DNA of 64,000 nucleotides, taken from assembly GCF_018350175.1 (NCBI RefSeq), contig NC_058368.1:48858001-48922000 (forward strand). Reading direction: 5' to 3'. The translations under genes and the position numbers were made by a program. Source of the DNA: Felis catus (Eukaryota). The notes below the pieces were generated by a model, which was given only the letters and a program-made list of their open reading frames with translations, ran no database searches and was not told the DNA's origin. Shown here one piece after another: positions 3,020 through 64,000 of the stretch (its first letter is position 1; every line of letters begins with the position of its first letter).

Positions 3020-4460
3020 AATTATTTCCTTATGACCAATTTCCAGAAGTGAAATTCCTGGGTCAAAAGGTAAGCATATTTTCAATATTTTTTTGATTTA
3101 TATTGCCAACTGACTCTTGAGATAGATGTTTATTTATGCATCTACTGGCTGTGCAGCAAACAAAACGTTTCTTCTCACTGTTGCCAATGTGTATTATCAC
3201 TCTTTTTATCTTTGCCAATTGGTGACTCGTTATTTTAGTTTTCGCTTCTTTTCTTACAATGAGGTTAAGCTTTTGTTTTTTCATATTTGCTGGTAATTTG
3301 TTTTTATGTGTGTGTAAGAATTCTGTTTTCTATTCCTTTGCCTGTTTCAATATTGGCATTTCTCGTTTGTAATAAGTTTTTCTAGGAAAGACAATAACCT
3401 TTCTTTGCATGTTACCCATATAGTTCTTCCACTTTTTGCTTGCTATTTTATTCTACTTGTCAAATTTGGAAGAAGCAGATGTTTAAAATTTTTAATGTAG
3501 CAAAACTGATAAATCAGTAATTTGTGAGGCTTGTGAAGGAGTCTGTTCATACCCGCAAGATTATATAAATATTCACTTATATTTTCTTTCTTAGAACTCT
3601 TATAATTTCAGAGAAGTAAGGGAAGGCATCACAGAGAAGGTGACATCTGAGCAAAGATCTGACAGAGTTAAAGAGGGGGCCATATGCATATTTTGGGGAG
3701 AAACATTCCAGGCAAAGAGAACCACAAATGCAAGAATCTTGTAATTGGAACTTTTGTGTATGGTTTGAGGGCCAGCAACGAGGCCAGTGTGTTTGAGGTA
3801 GAATGACTGAAGGGGTAGAAAACACTGGCCATGTTGCATAGGGCTTTCAAGCTCACCATAAATCCTTTATTCTGAGAGAAATGGGAACATTGCGGGAGGA
3901 GGGTTTAATCGCAGAAGTCACGTGACCTGAGCTTCATTCTAACAGGATTCCTCTTTATTCTTTAATAGTTCAATCAGTTGATTCAAATTATTTATCGAAT
4001 CTTTTTTCCCGGATGGAGAGGTTATTCTTTTTGATATAATTTATATAAATTATTAAATTGTTAAGGATGCTTAGCGTTAATATAAATTAATCTAATGTGG
4101 AACTTTCATTTTGTTTGCTTTAATCTCTTGACTTTCTCTTGCATAAATAAAACACTGTTTTAATTGTTGTACATTAAAGTACATTTAAAGTCTGATTGAG
4201 CAGATTCCTTTTTATTACTGTTTTCTCAAATTTTTCTTGCCTGTTTTTGGTCATTTTTTTTCTATATATAAACTTTAATGTTATAATCAAGTTACTAAAA
4301 TTCATTGGCTTTGGATGTGTGAATAAACTGCCTGGATTATTTTTGAGCAAGAATTGAAATCTGTGCAATACTGTCTTTCAGTAATTTAAGCTTCATTTAA
4401 AACTTTTTCATCAGGTTTTGTAATTTATCACATCCAGGTCTTGTACATTTCTTGTTCTCT
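3020..4460 (-). mobile_element. Ancient degraded L1 (L1M-type) 3' region, interrupted by an L2 fragment
   Basis: Motifs such as ccagaagtgaaattcctgggtcaaaagg and T-rich decayed ORF2-like sequence at 4180-4440; no intact ORF. Confidence 0.55.
3610..3950 (-). mobile_element. L2 LINE fragment
   Basis: ggaaggcatcacagagaaggtgacatctgagcaaagatct...aacattccaggcaaagagaa, typical antisense L2 3' region. Confidence 0.65.
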
Positions 4461-44206: not shown

Positions 44207-45883
44207 AATCTACGGATTTAATGCAATCCCCATCAAACTACCAATAATTTTTTTTTCACAGAACTAGAATAAATAATCCTAAAATTTGTATGAAGCCATA
44301 AAAGACCATGAATAGCCAAAAAAATTTTGAGAAAGAGCAAAGCTAGTTATCACAATTCCAGATTTTGAGATATACTACAAAGCTGTAGCAATCAAAACAG
44401 TCAGGTACTGGCACAAAAAAACAGACTTATAGATCAATGAAACAGAGTTAGAGAGCCCAGAAATAAACCCGCACGTACATGGTCAATTAATCTACAACAA
44501 AGAAGGAAACAATGTACAATGGGGAAAAGACAGTCTCTTCAACAAATGGTATTGGGAAAACTGGACAGCTACAAACAAAGTAATAAAACTGAACCACTTT
44601 CTTATGCCATACATGAAAATAAACTCAAAATAGATTAAAGACCTGAATGTGAGACTGAAAACCATAACACTCCTAAAAGAAAACATAGGTAGTAATCTTT
44701 TGGACTCAGGCTTTAGCAAAATATTTATGGATATGTCTCCAGAAAGGCAAGGGAAACATAAGCAAATTATATGGATTATACCAAAATAAAAAGCTTTTGC
44801 ACAGCAAAGAAACCATCATCCAAACTAAAGGCAACCTACTGAATGAGAGAAAATATTTGCAAATGATATATCTCATAAAGGGTTAATGTCCAAAATAAAT
44901 AAAGAACTTGTACAACTCAACACCAAAAAGCCTCAAATAGTCTGATTAAAACATAGGCAGAGGATCTGAATAGACATTTTTTCAAGGAAGACATACAGAT
45001 GGCCAACAGACACATGAAAAGATGCTCAATATCACTCACCATCAGGAAAATACAAATCTAAACCGCCAATAAGATATCACATCAGTCAGAACGGCTAGTA
45101 TCAAAAATACAAGAAATCACATGTGTTGGTGAAGAAGTGGAGAAAAGAGAACATTTATGCACTGCTGGTAGGAATGTGAATTGGTGCCATCACTGTGGAA
45201 AACTGTGGGGAGTTTCCTCAAAAAATTAAAAATAGAAACACCACACAATCCACTTATTTCACTATTGGGTATTTAACCCAAAGAGAACAAAAGCACTAAT
45301 TTGAAAAGATACATGCACCCTATATGTTTTCTTGCAGCATGATTTACAATAGCCAATATTATAAATCAACATAAGATATGGAAACAACAGAAGTGTCCAT
45401 TGACAGATAAATGGATAAAGAATATGTAGTATATACATACAATGGAATATTATTCCGCCATAAAAAATCAAGATCTTTTCATTCGTGACAACGCGATGAA
45501 CCAGAGGGTATTAAGTTTAATCAGATAAGTCAGACAGAGAAAGACAAATACCATATGGTTTCACTTATATGTGAAATCTGAAAAACAAAACAAGCAAACA
45601 GACACAGAATCATAAATATATGGAACAAACTGGTAGTTGCCAGGGGGATAGATGAAATAGGTAAAAAGGTTTGAGAGGTACAAACCTCTAGTTATAAAAC
45701 AATAAGTCTTGGAGATGAAAGTACAGCATAGGGAATATAGCAAATAATATTGTAATAATGTTGTGTGGTGACAGGTGGTTGTGGTGAGCACTGCATAATG
45801 TATAGACTTGTGAATCACTATGCTGTATACCTGGGGCTAATATAACATTGTATGTCAACTATACTTCAATAAAAATTTAAAAA
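44207..45883 (+). mobile_element. 5'-truncated degenerate carnivore L1 (ORF2 3' third plus 3'UTR)
   Basis: Starts atctacggatttaatgcaatccccatcaaa; homologous to the 57.9-59.3 kb ORF2 but with stops and frameshifts; ends caataaaaa. Confidence 0.95.
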
Positions 45884-49372: not shown

Positions 49373-50030
49373 CAAAAATGAACTACTGGGACCTCATCAA
49401 AATAAAAAGCTTCTGCACAGCGAAGGAAACAATCAGTAAAACTAAAAGGCAACCGACAGAATGGGAGAAGATATTTGCAAATGACATATCAGATAAAGGG
49501 TTAGTATCCAAAATCTATAAAGAATTTATCAAACTCAACACCCAAAAACCAAACAGTCCAGTGAAGAAATGGGTAAAAAACACGAATAGACACTTCTCCA
49601 AGGAAGACATCCAGATGGCCAATCGACACATGAAAAAATGCTCCACGTCACTCATCATCAGGGAAATACAAATCAAAACCACAATGAGATACCACCTTAC
49701 ACCTGTCAGAATGGCTAACATTCACAACTCAGGCAACAACAGATGTTGGCGAGGATGCGGAGAAAGAGGATCTCTTTTGCACTGTTGGTGGGAATGCAAG
49801 CTGATGCAGCCACTCTGGAAAACAGTATGGAGGTTCCTCAAAAAACTAAAAATAGAACTACCCTATGACTAAGCAAATGCACTACTATGCATTTATCCAT
49901 GGGATACAGTTGTGCTGTTTCAAAGGGACACATGCACCCCCATGTTTATAGCAGCACTATCAACAATAGCCAAAGTATGGAAAGAGCCCAAATGTCCATC
50001 GATGGATGAATGGATAATGAAGATGGGGTG

Positions 50031-50084
<54 letters not shown>

Positions 50085-50422
50085 GGAGTATTACTAGGCA
50101 ATCAAAAAGAATGAAATCTCGCCATTTGCAACTACATGGCTGGAACTGAAGGGTATTATGCTAAGTGAAGAAAGACTTCACTCATATGAGGACTTTAAGA
50201 GACAAAACAGATGAACATAAGGGAAGAGAAACAAAAATAGTATAAATACAGGGTGCGGGACAAACCAGAAGAGGCTCATAGATATGGAGAACAAACTGAG
50301 GGTTACTGGAGGGGTTGTGGGAGGGAGGGATGAGCTAAATGGGTAAGGGGAATTAAGGAATCTACTCCTGAAATCATTGTTTCACTATATGCTAACTAAT
50401 TTGGATGTAAATTAAAAAAAAA
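49373..50422 (+). mobile_element. 5'-truncated feliform L1 (ORF2 C-terminus plus 3'UTR)
   Basis: ORF track gives [17 protein letters not shown]...[18 protein letters not shown] then a premature stop; TSD aagat(c/t)a(c/t)gtagtttga at 49356-49372 and 50423-50439. Confidence 0.97.
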
Positions 50423-50937: not shown

Positions 50938-52331
50938 CTTTTTTTTAAATTGAGACATAATTAACATATAATATTTTATTAGTTTCAGGTGTACAACATG
51001 ATTCAATATATGCATATATTGCAAATGATCACCACAGTAAATGCAGTTAACATTCATCACCACACATGGTTACAACTTTTTTTATAATGAAAACCTTTTC
51101 TTTTTTGAGACAGAGACTGTGCACAAGAGTATGTGAGTGGGGGAGGGGCAAAGGGAGAGGGAGAGAGAGAATTTTAAGCAGGATCCATGCCCATATAGAG
51201 CCTGATGCAGAGCTCAGTCTCATAACCATGAGATCATAACCTGAGCTGAAATTAAGAGTCGGATACTTCATTGACTGAACCACCCAGACACCCCAAGATT
51301 TCACCTTTTTGATGGATGAGTAATATTCCACTGTGTATATGCACCACATCTTCTTTATCCATTCATCAGTTGATGGACATTTGGGCTCTTTCCATAATTT
51401 GGCTATTGTTTATAGTTCTACTATACATGTGGGGATGCATGTGCCCTTTTGAAACAGTATTTTTGTATCCTTTGGACAAATACCTAGTAGTGCAATTGCT
51501 GGGATTTAGGGTAGTTGTATTTTCAACTTTTTGAGGAACTTCCATACTATTTTCCAGAGTGTCTGCACCAGTTTGCATCCCTACCGACGGTGTAAGAGGA
51601 TTCCCGTTTCTCCACATCCTTGCCAACATCTGTTTTTTTTAAGTTGTTAATTTTAGTCATTCTGACAGGCGTGAAGTGGCATATCATTGTGGTTTTGATT
51701 TGTATTTCTCTGATGATGAGTGATGTTGAGCATTTTTTCATGTGTCTGTTAGCCATTTGTACATCTTCTTTGGAGAAATGTCTGCTGATGTCTTCTGCCC
51801 AATTATTAACTGGATTATTTACTTTTTGCCTGTTGAGTTTGGTAAGTTCTTTACAGATTTTGGATACCAGCCTTTTATCTGATATGTCATTTGCAAATAT
51901 CTTCTTCCATTCTGTAGGTTGCCTTTTAGTTTTGTTGATTTTTTTTTTTACTGTGCAGAAGATTTATATCTTGATGAAGTCCCAATAGTTCATTTTTGCT
52001 TTTGTTTCCCTTGCCTCTGAGACATGTCTATTAAGAAGTTGCTGTGGCTGAGATCAAAGAAGTTGCTGACTATGTTCTCTAGGATTTGGATGGTTTCCTG
52101 TCTCACATTTAGGTCTTTTACCCATTTTGAATTTATTTTTGTGTATGGTGTAAGAAAGTGGTCCAGTTTCATTTTTCTGCATGTTGCTGTCCAGTGTCCC
52201 CAATATGATTTGTTGAAGACACTTTTTCCATTGGATATTCTTTCCTGCTTTGTTGAAGCTAATCTTAATTGTAGGTCCATTTCTGGATTCTCTATTCTGT
52301 TCCATTGACCTGTGTGTCTGTTTTTGTGCCA
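50938..52331 (-). mobile_element. 5'-truncated L1 (ORF2 3' part and 3' terminus) with a SINE inside
   Basis: Frameshifted ORF2 peptides ([35 protein letters not shown]) and an L1 3' end at 50940-51090. Confidence 0.93.
51096..51294 (-). mobile_element. Can-SINE within L1
   Basis: gagatcataacctgagctgaaattaagagtcgga...cacccagacacccc. Confidence 0.92.
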
Positions 52332-56610: not shown

Positions 56611-57656
56611 CATTTCTCTTCCTTAAAAAAGGTGTCATTCTATGAAATTTGGAAACATGATTCCAAGGTCAAACAACAGGACTGTTTTCAGTTGGTATTA
56701 TTTAGAGGCATGAAGAAAATCTCCCTGACTCTAATTTATCTTTTATCACATTTCCTGAAACTTAAGAACTAGAAATATATTCTTTTGGCTTATGGTTCAC
56801 TTTCTAAGTGTGCTCATTAAATATAGAGTTGTTATCAAGAAGGATAAAACATGAAGCTGTTATAAGTAATTGTCACTGTAATGTGAATTTGTCAAAGGAG
56901 GCTGATTAAAGCTGATTAAGTTAGGGGTCATTTTGTTGTGAGCAAAACAGAGAAGAGAAAATAAGCTTATGTGATAGTTCAACTCTTAAGAAGGGCAGAC
57001 CTGATTAAAGTGCCAAAGTTGGTAGCATTTGGACTTCTCTTTTGTGGAGAGGGAACTTAATGGAGGAAGAAACTGAGAAGGAAAACCAGGGAGATTTGAG
57101 TTCACATTTCCCCACTGCTCTCGGTATCTAAAGATGTCCCTGCTGGCTTGATTCATTAGACATCATCTATTTAGGGGACACTAAATGATACTGAGAGATA
57201 ATCTTAGTTGTATTATAGTATTGAGCACAAACTCATTCTTCTATTCAAGGATAATACTTCCACTGAGTGGATATTGAGTTTGAAAGTATCATCCCTATGG
57301 GGTTTGGAGCCAGGCAGATTTCTGAAAGTTTATTTCTTGGGGTGAGGGGAAGGAGACCATGCCAGATTCAGGCATGACTTCCCTCTCTGTGAAGATGGAA
57401 GCTAAGTAAGCAGAGGAACAGAACAACCTGACTGGTTCCTGGGGAGAGGGGACATTAGGGAACCAGGTGGTACCACAAGGGTCCATTAAGGGAGACAGAC
57501 ATGAGGATGTGAGTCCAGAAGACTGGATTAAGACCCCAGGAGATTAGTTCTCAGGATGGGACAGGCAGGTTGCTTGTATCATGACAGAGGACAAAGTTAA
57601 ACACAGACATTAGAGTTTCATTTCAATTAGTGATGGGAAGGCTGAGTTAAATTTCT

Positions 57657-59511
57657 TTTTTTTTATATATATGAAATTTATTGACAAATTGGTTTCCATA
57701 TAACACCCAGTGCTCATCCCAAAAGGTGCCCTCCTCAATACCCATCACCCACCCTCTCCTCCCTCCCACCCCCCATCAACCCTCAGTTTGTTCTCAGTTT
57801 TTAACAGTCTCTTATGCTTTGGCTCTCTCCCACTCTAACCTCTTTTTTTTTTTTTTTCCTTCCCCTCCCCCATGGGTTCCTGTTAAGTTTCTCAGGATCC
57901 ACATAAGAGTGAAACCATATGGTATCTGTCTTTCTCTGTATGGCTTATTTCACTTAGCATCACACTCTCCAGTTCCATCCACGTTGCTACAAAAGGCCAT
58001 ATTTCATTTTTTCTCATTGCCACGTAATATTCCATTGTGTATATAAACCACAATTTCTTTATCCATTCATCAGTTGATGGACATTTAGGCTCTTTCCATA
58101 ATTTGGCTATTGTTGAGAGTGCTGCTATGAACATTGGAGTACAAGTGGCCCTATGCATCAGTACTCCTGTATCCCTTGGATAAATTCCTAGCAGTGCTAT
58201 TGCTGGGTCATAGGGTAGGTCTATTTTTAATTTTCTGAGGAACCTCCACACTGCTTTCCAGAGCGGCTGCACCAATTTGCATTCCCACCAACAGTGCAAG
58301 AGGGTTCCCGTTTCTCCACATCCTCTCCAGCATCTAGAGTCTCCTGATTTGTTCATTTTGGCCACTCTGACTGGCGTGAGGTGATACCTGAGTGTGGTTT
58401 TGATTTGTATTTCCCTGATAAGGAGCGACGCTGAACATCTTTTCATGTGCCTGTTGGCCATCCGGATGTCTTCTTTAGAGAAGTGTCTATTCATGTTTTC
58501 TGCCCATTTCTTCACTGGGTTATTTGTTTTTCGGGTGTGGAGTTTGGGGAGCTCTTTATAGGTTTTGGATACTAGCCCTTTGTCCGATATGTCATTTGCG
58601 AATATCTTTTCCCATTCCGTTGATTGCCTTTTAGTTTTGTTGGTTGTTTCCTTTGCTATGCAGAAGCTTTTTATCTTCATAAGGTCCCAGTAATTCACTT
58701 TTGCGTTTAATTCCCTTGCCTTTGGGGATGTGTCGAGTAAGAGATTGCTACGGCTGAGGTCAGAGAGGTCTTTTCCTGCTTTCTCCTCTAAGGTTTTGAT
58801 GGTTTCCTGTCTCACATTTAGGTCCTTTATCCATTTGGAGTTTATTTTTGTGAATGGTGTGAGAAAGTGGTCTAGTTTCAACCTTCTGCATGTTGCTGTC
58901 CAGTTCTCCCAGCACCATTTGTTAAAGAGACTGTCTTTTTTCCATTGGATGTTCTTTCCTGCTTTGTCAAAGATGAGTTGGCCATACGTTTGTGGGTCTA
59001 GTTCTGGGGTTTCTATTCTATTCCATTGGTCTAAGTGTCTGTTTTTGTGCCAATACCATGCTGTCTTGATGATGACAGCTTTGTAGTAGAGGCTAAAGTC
59101 TGGGATTGTGATGCCTCCTGCTTTGGTCTTCTTCTTCAAAATTACATTGGCTATTCGGGGCCTTTTGTGGTTCCATATGAATTTTAGGATTGCTTGTTCT
59201 AGTTTCGAGAAGAATGCTGGTGCAATTTTGATTGGGATTGCATTGAATGTGTAGATAGCTTTGGGTAGTATAGATAGCTTTGGTAGTATCTGCCCCGGCT
59301 CCCTCCCGCCAGTCCGTGGAGCGCGCACCATCTCGCCGCCCTTCCTACCCTCTTCTGTGGGCCTCTCGTCTGTGTTTGGCTCCGGCGACTCCGTTCTGCT
59401 AATCCTCTGGTGGTTTTCTGGGTTATTTAGGCAGGTGTAGGTGGAATCTAAGTGATCAGCAGGACATGCGGTGAGCCCAGCGTCCTCCTAAGCCGCCATC
59501 TTGCAAACCTC
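57657..59511 (-). mobile_element. Young felid L1 with intact 5' and 3' termini but a large internal deletion
   Basis: Perfect 15-bp TSD ctgagttaaatttct at 57642-57656 and 59512-59526; AATAAA and a short A tail; 5'UTR (59290-59511) homologous to the L1 start at ~62080-62296; YY1 site gccgccatcttg at 59492-59503. Confidence 0.97.
57892..59331 (-). CDS. Chimeric L1 ORF: 14 aa from the 5'UTR, a 6-aa linker and the 459-aa ORF2p C-terminal region with CCHC knuckle; expression unknown
   Basis: 479-aa uninterrupted [38 protein letters not shown]...[18 protein letters not shown]...[21 protein letters not shown]; no EN domain or FADD RT motif. Confidence 0.6.
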
Positions 59512-59789
59512 CTGAGTTAAATTTCTAAGACTGAGATCCATGTTTGATAATGGTTCCTATATTATTGGAAGATACACATTTCACAAAGGAAGACAGTGAG
59601 CAAGGTAACACAAAAGACTTGTGGTTGCATGAGGACTGTGGGCAAATGAACGAGTTTACATTAGTTACAGGAACAGGTTTGGAAAGTTGTCACCGGCGGG
59701 TGGGGATACAGGCTACGACATACATTAGAGAATAAATGCTAAAAGAAGTTCCCATGGAGAGGAACTATTTTGGGAAAGAGGCAGCATGA

Positions 59790-59975
59790 AAGAAAGCTAA
59801 GTGTGGAGGCTCTAGGTTAATGCCCAAGGGCTCCAGGGCTCTCAGCTCCTCACCTGCAATATGGACATAAAAATGATATCTTATAGGTTTGTGATGAAAT
59901 CAAAATGAGATAATGCCTGTGAAGCACTTCATGTAGTGACTGACATAGTAAATAAACACTCAATACAGTTTAGGA
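59790..59975 (+). mobile_element. MIR SINE relic
   Basis: ctcagctcctcacctgcaatatgg...ataggtttgtgatgaaatcaaaatgagataatg. Confidence 0.6.
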
Positions 59976-60223
59976 ACTACCATTTATTTTAATGATTCTG
60001 AGCCACAGAGCTATTTCTCTATTTCCTCTAGGGGCTGAGACCTGGGATTGCTGAGTATTGGTATTCAGACCTTCCATTATCTGAGGGGAGTACAGAGGGG
60101 AGCTTACACCCTCTCTTTCCCCTATTGACTTTCTCCTATTGGGGATTAAAATTTAAGTTGGAGTATGGCAGTTTGCATGGATAGTCCTTCCTTCTAAATA
60201 TTATCATAGGGAGGCATCTTCTT

Positions 60224-61720: not shown

Positions 61721-62424
61721 AAACAGTGGGTCTGTAGGATAAAACCAGTGTATGGAGGGCCTAGAAGTATAAGTTGAAAAGCAATAAGCAGCAGGGTGTG
61801 TTCCACTGGCCTGGCCTATGTGGTCATCTAAAACAGATACCACTGAGCTTCGTCCTGGGGAGAGCTCAGTGGCTACTGGTATTGAGGGTCGTGTGCAGCT
61901 GTGGGTCTACCTGTCGGTGGGATTACCAGTCCTGCTGGGTGGGACTCGTGACGTCATAAAACATGAAGGTAGCTGAATCCAGGCCAGAACTAACATTTGC
62001 TCAAGACTGGGTCCCAAAAGGTCTTCACAGCATCTTCGTCAGTAGATTCCATCTCAAGAAACTACTTTCGGAGTGACCAGGAGGAAGATGGGGGTGTAGG
62101 AGGACGCTGGGCTCACCTCGTCCTGCTGATCACTTAGATTCCACCCACACCTGCCTACATAACCCAGAAAACCGCCAGAAGACGAACAGAACGGACTCTC
62201 CAGAGCTAAGTGTGGACAAGAGGCCCACGGAAGAGGGTAGGAAGGGCAGAGAGGCAGTGTGTGCTAACACGGACTGGCAGGAGGGAGCTAGGGCAGTGGA
62301 GGAGCAGCCCGCCCAGCAAGGCAGAGCCCCTGAAGTCTGGCTTGCAAAAGTGGAGGGGCCGGACAACGTGAGTTCTGACAGCCAGTGGGACTTAACATCT
62401 GGAATGTTAAAAGTCAACAGATCT

Positions 62425-62591
62425 GGGGTGCCTGGGTGGCTCAGTCAGTTAAGCATCTGACTTCAGCTCAGGTCATGATCTCACAGCTTGTGAGTTCAAG
62501 TCCCAATTTGGGCTCTGTGCTGACAGCTTGGAGCCTGGAGCCTGCTTCAGATTCTGTGTCTCCCTCTCTCTCTGCCCCTCCCCTGCTCACA

Positions 62592-62633
<42 letters not shown>

Positions 62634-62672
62634 AAAAAAAAATATTAAAAAATTTTTTTTAAAAATTAAAAA
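62425..62672 (+). mobile_element. Can-SINE inserted in the L1 5'UTR
   Basis: Full body; TSD aaaagtcaac(a/t)g(a/c)tct on both sides. Confidence 0.95.
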
Positions 62673-63274
62673 AAAAGTCAACTGCTCTACTCTGGGAGAG
62701 TGTGGAAGGCAAGAGGACGCTGGGAGGGAGAGTTGTTGAGCCCCGGAAGACAGAGCTCATCTTGGTGGGAAACAAAGGCACTGGCAAGTGCCCTTTCCCT
62801 CTCCCATCCCCCAGCCAAAATTCCAAAGGGAACCAGTTCCCATCACCAAACTTGCTTGCAGCGCGCAAACACCCAATGCTGTGCTTCTGTGGATCCATCC
62901 CTCCGACGGCCTGCCTCCCTCCCGGTGCTGCAGGGCCCCTCCCACAGGGGACCACCTACAACAAAGCCTGCCCCTCCTGCCCCTGTGCACCTTGTGGATC
63001 CACCCCGGCTAATACACCCTTGGCCAGATCCCATCAAAGCAGCACCACAAGCCTGGCAGTGTGCAAGTAGCCCAGACAGGGGCCACACCACTCCACAGTG
63101 AGTCTTGCCCCTGGGAGAGGGGAAGATAAGGTACACACCAGTCTGACTGTGGCCCCAGCAGTGGGCTGGGGGCAGACATCGGGTCTGACTGCGGCCCCAC
63201 CCACCAACACAAGTTACTCCGGACAGCACAAGGAAAGTGCTCCGCAGTTTGTAGCTACTGCAGGAACTACCAAC

Positions 63275-64000
63275 ATGACGAAACAGAAGAATTCTCCTCA
63301 AAAGAAACTCTAGGAAGTAGCAACAGCTAATGAACTGATCAAAAACGATTTACACAATATAACAGAACAAGAATTTAGTATAATAGTCATAAAATTAATC
63401 GCTGGGCTTGAAAAAAGCATAGAGAACAACAAAGAATCTATTGCTATGGAGATCAAGGGACTAAGAAATAGTCATGAGGAACTAAAAAATGCTATAAATG
63501 AGGTGCAAAATAAAACGGAGGCGGCCATAGCATGGATTGAAGATGCAAAGCAGAGAATAGATGAATTTGAAGATAAAATTATGGAAAAAGAGGAAGCTGA
63601 GGAAAGAGAGATAAAAAAATCCAGGAGTACCAGGGAGAATTAGAGAACTAAGTGATGCAATCAAACGGAACAATATCCGTATCATAGGAATTCCAGAAGA
63701 GGAAGAGAGAGAGAAAGGGGCTGAAGGTGTACTTGAACAAATCATAGCTGAGAACTGCCCCGATCTGGGGAAGGAAAAAGGCGTTGAATCCAAGAGGCAC
63801 AGAGAAGTCCCTTCAGACGTAACTTGAATCAATCTTCTGCACAATATATCATAGTGAAACTGGCAAAATACAAGGATAAAGAGAAAATTCTGAAAGCAGC
63901 TAGGGATAAACAGGCTCTAACTTACAGAGGCAGACACATAAGAATAGTGGCAGACCTATCTACTGAAACTTGGCAGGCCAGAAAGGAATGGCAGGAAATC
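63275..64000 (+). pseudogene. Disrupted L1 ORF1p
   Basis: MTKQKNSPQKKL* with a stop at 63311-63313; coiled-coil-like MEIKGLRNSHEELKNAINEVQNK; frameshift near 63620; then NNIRIIGIPEEEEREKG and IIVKLAKYKDKEKILKAARDK ORF1 motifs. Confidence 0.9.

Follow-up and report, generated by a model that had tools for sequence, protein, structure and literature searches.

The 64-kb stretch of Felis catus DNA that we analysed (the window, from here on) carries, on its minus strand at 59511-57657, a 1,855-bp L1 that has kept both of its ends and lost its middle. Its features are collected in Table 1. The 15-bp repeats that bracket the element are identical, and this 15-mer occurs just twice in the whole window. 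The target, TTTCT/AA, resembles the L1 endonuclease motif as given in excerpts of PMC5860796 and, together with the 15-bp duplication, the AATAAA signal and the A tail, makes up the signature of TPRT. Twin priming does not fit, because head and tail lie in the same orientation and the 5' segment is uninverted. An earlier note on this DNA had reported most of this anatomy: a 1855-bp element between perfect 15-bp duplications, an intact 5' end with a 222-nt head and a YY1 motif, a polyadenylation signal and tail, and a stop-free frame of 479 amino acids starting at 59331. We found the same. The head measures 222-223 nt, its 5' end is of a type common to 41 of 128 relatives, and the motif core at 59502 is one that we take to be YY1-type.

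Table 1. Features of the internally deleted L1, in window coordinates
Feature	Position	Strand	Remark
TSD, 5' copy, 15 bp	59512..59526	-	target 5'-TTTCT/AA-3' on nicked strand
TSD, 3' copy, 15 bp	57642..57656	-	identical to 5' copy
5' UTR head	59289..59511	-	first 223 nt (24%) of 927-nt UTR; true 5' end
YY1-type core (presumed name)	59502	-	within UTR head
Upstream 3-codon frame	59488..59499	-	AUG inside YY1-type motif, strong context
Second upstream 3-codon frame	starts 59467	-	created by CpG decay
Fusion-ORF start ATG	59329..59331	-	two substitutions relative to family sequence
Fusion ORF, 479 codons	57892..59331	-	14 UTR + 6 insert + 459 ORF2 codons
18-nt templated junction insert	59272..59289	-	copy of 19 nt at ORF2 restart
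ORF2 3' third, 459 codons, residues 816-1274	57892..59271	-	alignment to sibling and human ORF2p
CCHC motif, C-x3-C-x7-H-x4-C, intact	58279..58332	-	within ORF2 part
3' UTR	57657..57891	-	AATAAA at 57682-57677, short A tail

Our yardstick for what is missing was a set of siblings, taken as the best 39 matches to the head and the best 20 matches to the tail in the genome. We kept the 54 of these 59 that had both ends and passed our filters; L108, L129, L141, L148 and L150 were excluded, as was L131, a neighbour in the window. The siblings, about 5,927 bp in length, represent a young felid L1 subfamily of 5.93 kb. Measured against these 54 full-length copies, the deleted one lacks a median of 4,092 bp between its breakpoints: nucleotides 224-927 of the UTR, the whole of ORF1 (nt 928-1821 in the sibling) and ORF2 codons 1-815. 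The original estimate of about 4 kb was sound, as was the view that the rest of the UTR, ORF1, the endonuclease and the RT core are absent; what remains of ORF2 begins at residue 816 of the 1,274-aa intact sibling protein, after the FADD at 699. The comparator used at that time, an L1 at 62070 and beyond, had identified the absent regions correctly and was the wrong parent type. It belongs to an older subfamily, 81-89% identical to the reference sibling, which rules it out as the parent type.

That neighbour, L131, is a full-length L1 on the plus strand that fills the window from 62070 to 64000 and reaches some 4.3 kb past its end; a SINE-like insert interrupts its 5'UTR at about 62426-62674. 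Older L1 ORF2 fragments, 67-84% identical to the young family, lie at 44208-45584, 49373-50328 and 51320-52331.

Head and tail of the deleted copy come from a single sub-lineage. They are 96-97% and 97-99% identical, respectively, to the same full-length loci and their diagnostic sites agree, which rules out a chimera of two subfamilies. The copy departs from the sibling majority at 7 positions in the head and 14 in the tail, about 1.1%, and so is young. Its relatives abound: a 25-nt word from the head has 2,040 exact matches in the genome. The young family also has at least two types of 5' end, the L151-type (41 of 128 relatives) and the L092-type (16 of 128), which track variants in the tail; this suggests separate source lineages.

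The head does not run straight into ORF2. Between the two, at 59289-59272, sits a direct but imperfect 18-nt copy of the 19 nt found at the restart (59271 onward), with one base of a C run dropped and a single nucleotide of homology at each end. The head had previously been described as fused in frame to ORF2; the frame stands, the clean join does not. A GT is lacking within 3 nt of the head's end, as is an AG in the 3 nt ahead of the restart, which rules out splicing, and the longest word common to the two breakpoint regions is 4 nt, which rules out recombination between internal repeats. The SpIREs described in the accessible part of PMC5860796 resemble the cat locus in keeping both ends and a TSD around an internal deletion and in being dead ends. 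They are joined precisely at GT...AG; the cat locus has no GT-AG, its junction is imprecise and holds the 18-nt insert, and it does not recur (one locus, against 74 for the GT-AG junction to which we return below).

A closer parallel comes from worms. Polymerase-theta inserts in Caenorhabditis elegans, as presented in excerpts of PMC5068794, are derived from the flank, are mostly shorter than 25 bp, are primed by one base at both ends and often contain a mismatch or slip. The cat insert is likewise a short copy of its flank in direct orientation, primed by a single nucleotide at both ends and copied with an error. The junction is thus likely to be of the scar type described for polymerase-theta end joining, a type from which the enzyme itself cannot be read. 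The worm data come from mutagenised animals.

Our preferred reading, to which we give a probability of roughly 0.58, is that a single L1 was inserted at full length, lost its 4.1-kb middle at a break through polymerase-theta-type end joining and is now, in all likelihood, an inert dead end. Target-primed insertion of a full-length RNA would have created the 15-bp TSD. A break, during integration or afterwards, followed by resection, would then have removed everything from UTR position 224 to ORF2 codon 815. The head end may have used one base of the far end as its priming site and been extended by about 18 nt, slipping on the way; once released, it would have re-primed by one base to make the final join, which would be in frame by chance, with a point mutation making the ATG. 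The source RNA was probably full-length, because L1 proteins act by preference on the RNA that encodes them (PMC5860796, in excerpt), and a deleted RNA would have lacked the coding capacity for both. Completed full-length insertions have discrete TSDs of 12-18 bp in the accessible part of PMC11702581, and a true 5' end with a 15-bp TSD fits such an insertion. Two points count against end joining: at 4.1 kb the deletion exceeds all eight deletions found in relatives, and the frequency of such deletions does not rise with divergence. Nor is the 18-nt insert unique to polymerase theta, because ORF2p jumps templates in vitro (PMC10830420, in excerpt).

This last property is what makes the main rival possible, though we lean away from it. 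The deletion would have occurred during insertion: ORF2p would have stalled near nt 4,317, slipped back, recopied about 18 nt, jumped to nt 223, on either the same RNA or a sister molecule, and run on to the 5' end, leaving an equally single, dead copy. In keeping with such a course, same-orientation template switches are described among de novo insertions in PMC11702581, and the restart, 1.6 kb from the 3' end, is close to the 1.51 kb that the excerpted text of 10.1101/2024.08.27.596794 gives as the median length of poly(dT)-primed extension in inverted insertions. The template-switch chimeras in the accessible part of 10.1101/2025.02.02.635956 involve other RNAs, unlike the cat locus. Two jumps would be needed, however, each on one base of homology; the de novo classes in the part of 10.1101/2024.08.27.596794 that we could consult include no element that is non-inverted, both-ended and deleted by several kilobases; and the error and priming pattern of the insert matches POLQ (PMC5068794). 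Under either of these two mechanisms the outcome is the same, and jointly they make it very probable, judging by the features of the locus, that this L1 stands alone, is likely inert, has a large deletion and owes its frame to accident.

Some of the weighing between them depends on how often relatives lose their middles. Our sample began with the 100 head matches that stood first among the 2,040, every one on contig C1; from it we left out four, the deleted locus itself and three full-length copies already in the sibling set. Of the 96 examined, 71 gave one continuous full-length alignment, and another, likewise full-length, had an older head. Inserts of about 200-250 bp interrupt nine copies, and in five the 3' side is broken or rearranged. 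Two have a 5'UTR deletion in common, and the remaining eight (8%, interval 4-16%) carry one-off internal deletions with both ends kept. These eight deletions range from 0.1 to 2.7 kb and have differing breakpoints. To call the retention of both ends around a missing middle uncommon, as the earlier note did, was therefore an overstatement, even if no sampled deletion is as large as the one studied here. Seven of the one-off deleted copies were tested for TSDs, which were plausible in five, doubtful in one and absent in one; our first TSD finder was weak, recovering the repeats of 47 of the 71 full-length controls, and the search was redone for nine deleted copies only. In six 5'-intact copies (L108, L129, L216, L239, L221 and L240) the 3' part is absent or displaced within the fetched stretch.

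Two of the eight one-offs have junction inserts, in oriented coordinates L207 (2.5-kb deletion, 3257-3290) and L204 (1.7 kb, 3176-3185). The insert in L207 is an 18-nt repeat of its own restart site, the same design as at the deleted locus. When the one-offs are split by divergence, 4 of 54 young and 3 of 39 older copies carry them (Mann-Whitney p=0.53, with L194 unscored, low power and a coarse proxy for age). Accumulation after insertion predicts a rise with divergence, so the flat frequency leans toward deletion at the time of insertion. Internal deletion is presented as an expected, ordinary part of L1 decay in excerpts of PMC5872511 and PMC13192797. Like the single decayed copies described there, the cat locus has kept its ends and TSDs, lost its middle and gathered substitutions that look neutral; it differs from them in a deletion larger than those of the eight relatives and in a chance ATG that opens a 479-codon frame. 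The deleted locus is real and it is ordinary: one more dead L1. Its value is modest and lies in a clean junction scar which, alongside L207 and L204, suggests that flank-templated inserts recur as a mark of large deletions in young mammalian L1s.

What of the reading frame? It is the only ATG ORF of at least 100 codons between 55000 and 64000, and it matches residues 812-1274 of human ORF2p (E=2e-205). It encodes a pre-wrist stretch (late thumb), the wrist (ORF2p 863-1061 in the accessible part of PMC10830420) and the C-terminal domain with its CCHC, but neither an endonuclease nor an RT catalytic motif. Neither the 479-aa ORF nor any of 10 longer frames from other parts of the window was assigned to a family by Pfam, and hence no host gene was identified among the frames tested. 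The frame had been taken to start at an ATG of the UTR; the position is right, but the ATG is not the family's. It was built from two substitutions, a G>A seen in none of the 54 siblings, and so unique to the deleted copy among 55, and a CpG decay seen in five of the 54. Genome-wide, the ATG motif turns up at one other locus only, an older L1 whose UTR is undeleted.

It is tempting to imagine that the locus is expressed and that its EN-less, RT-less ORF2 fragment of 479 amino acids has been retained as a damper on L1, an idea we regard as highly unlikely. The frame does stay open across the 18-nt insert, the new ATG lies in a favourable context, with G at both -3 and +4, and the CCHC is intact. 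According to excerpts of PMC10830420, template RNA is contacted by the wrist, and retrotransposition depends on the wrist and the C-terminal domain; ORF2p fragments can act in trans according to PMC4889948, although the accessible part of that paper contains no mention of 'dominant negative'. Against this, two short upstream AUG frames of three codons each precede the start. Over the 459 ORF2 codons the frame is also open in 32 of 54 siblings (18 of 37 when those picked for tail similarity are set aside), and a copy with 12 substitutions has a chance of about 0.54 of having escaped a stop, so that an open frame is unremarkable at the copy's age. The changes within the ORF, three silent to nine missense, look as they would under neutrality, with an expected silent share of 0.20-0.26 (p=1.0, where n=12 gives little power and weak selection is possible); the siblings pooled have 246 silent to 331 missense, inherited changes included. 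CpG decay affects 6 of 20 sites in the head, more than in any other of the 55 copies, and none of the 17 in the tail, a skew in the damper's favour that may be chance (Fisher p=0.022) and that has counterparts in some siblings (4:0 twice, 3:0 three times). Heavy decay in the head also points to a methylated promoter. In a survey of sequencing runs for 59230-60200, 14 DNA or unlabelled runs (six studies, one organism) hold 0.87-0.90 of the sampled words and six RNA rows hold 0.08-0.60, figures that concern mostly flank and say nothing on the junction or on expression.

With a private ATG, substitutions that look neutral and a frame open in most siblings, the functional protein that had been suggested finds no support, and the long frame is likely a by-product of the deletion. 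In its boldest form the idea would be a newborn cat-lineage gene, in which an L1 promoter stub drives a 479-aa wrist and C-terminal fragment that would bind L1 RNA and act as a dominant-negative brake on retrotransposition. We would bet heavily against it. Were the fragment expressed and inhibitory, a piece of L1 ORF2 would have been turned against its own parent, a restriction factor at birth.

The earlier note had left two branches: a one-off deletion, or a non-autonomous derivative, mobilised in trans, of which this locus would be one copy. It had proposed a BLAST search with the junction to separate them. Run on the cat's own genome, a 141-nt junction query aligned end to end with its own locus only, among the best 40 of 1,013 candidates. 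The exact 21-nt junction pattern has one genome match, and a CpG-tolerant pattern with two mismatches has three, against three in the control, the other two being without L1 similarity. As a positive control, the same kind of search with a recurrent junction in the same L1 family returned 74 matches against none in the control. By BLAST (best 40 of 1,013), exact pattern and degenerate pattern, then, we found no second locus sharing the junction in this genome. Since the junction is single-copy, there is no mobile family in the cat's own genome, and the one-off branch gains support.

The other branch, a trans-mobilised, internally deleted L1 that would be HAL1-like, or SIDE-like in reverse, is largely refuted and most improbable. 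The retained 5' end, polyadenylation signal, tail and TSDs are what such an element would have, and families with internal deletions are known, among them HAL1 (PMC13756887) and R2 derivatives (PMC3414825). Set against this are the single copy of the junction, where the recurrent one has 74, and the 24% of the UTR that is left. Moreover, 37 of the best 39 head matches have a young tail, and all 37 are full-length. HAL1 does share with the cat locus the condition of an L1 derivative without the catalytic parts of ORF2, but it keeps ORF1 and is multi-copy, whereas here ORF1 lies inside the deletion and no copies share the junction with distinct TSDs in the cat's own genome.

An assembly error, in which separate parts of one full-length L1 or of two L1s had been put together, would be conceivable in a young repeat of such high copy number and with a junction read from assembled sequence, yet it is very improbable, given that the TSDs match, that homology at the breakpoints is one base with a longest common word of 4 nt, that a collapse would not make a faulty 18-nt duplicate and that head and tail haplotypes come from the same sub-lineage.

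The recurrent junction that served as our control is more interesting than the deleted L1 itself. Two of the sampled copies, L164 (G000:C1:28919044) and L246 (G000:C1:103449107), lack the same stretch of about 428 nt from their 5'UTR, bounded on one side by a GT donor (after nt 163) and on the other by an AG acceptor (nt 592) that follows a pyrimidine run. Their TSDs differ and so do their ages, at 99-100% and 88-93% identity to the reference sibling. The 74-locus GT-AG deletion is likely a felid SpIRE class. A limited literature search found no study of felid SpIREs, which is weak evidence on novelty. If the class is splice-derived, SpIREs would reach beyond primates to felids. Some of the 74 matches are clustered, five of them at G000:C37:43478817-43862855 and two at C46:187650-337563, and these are perhaps segmental duplicates and not separate insertions.
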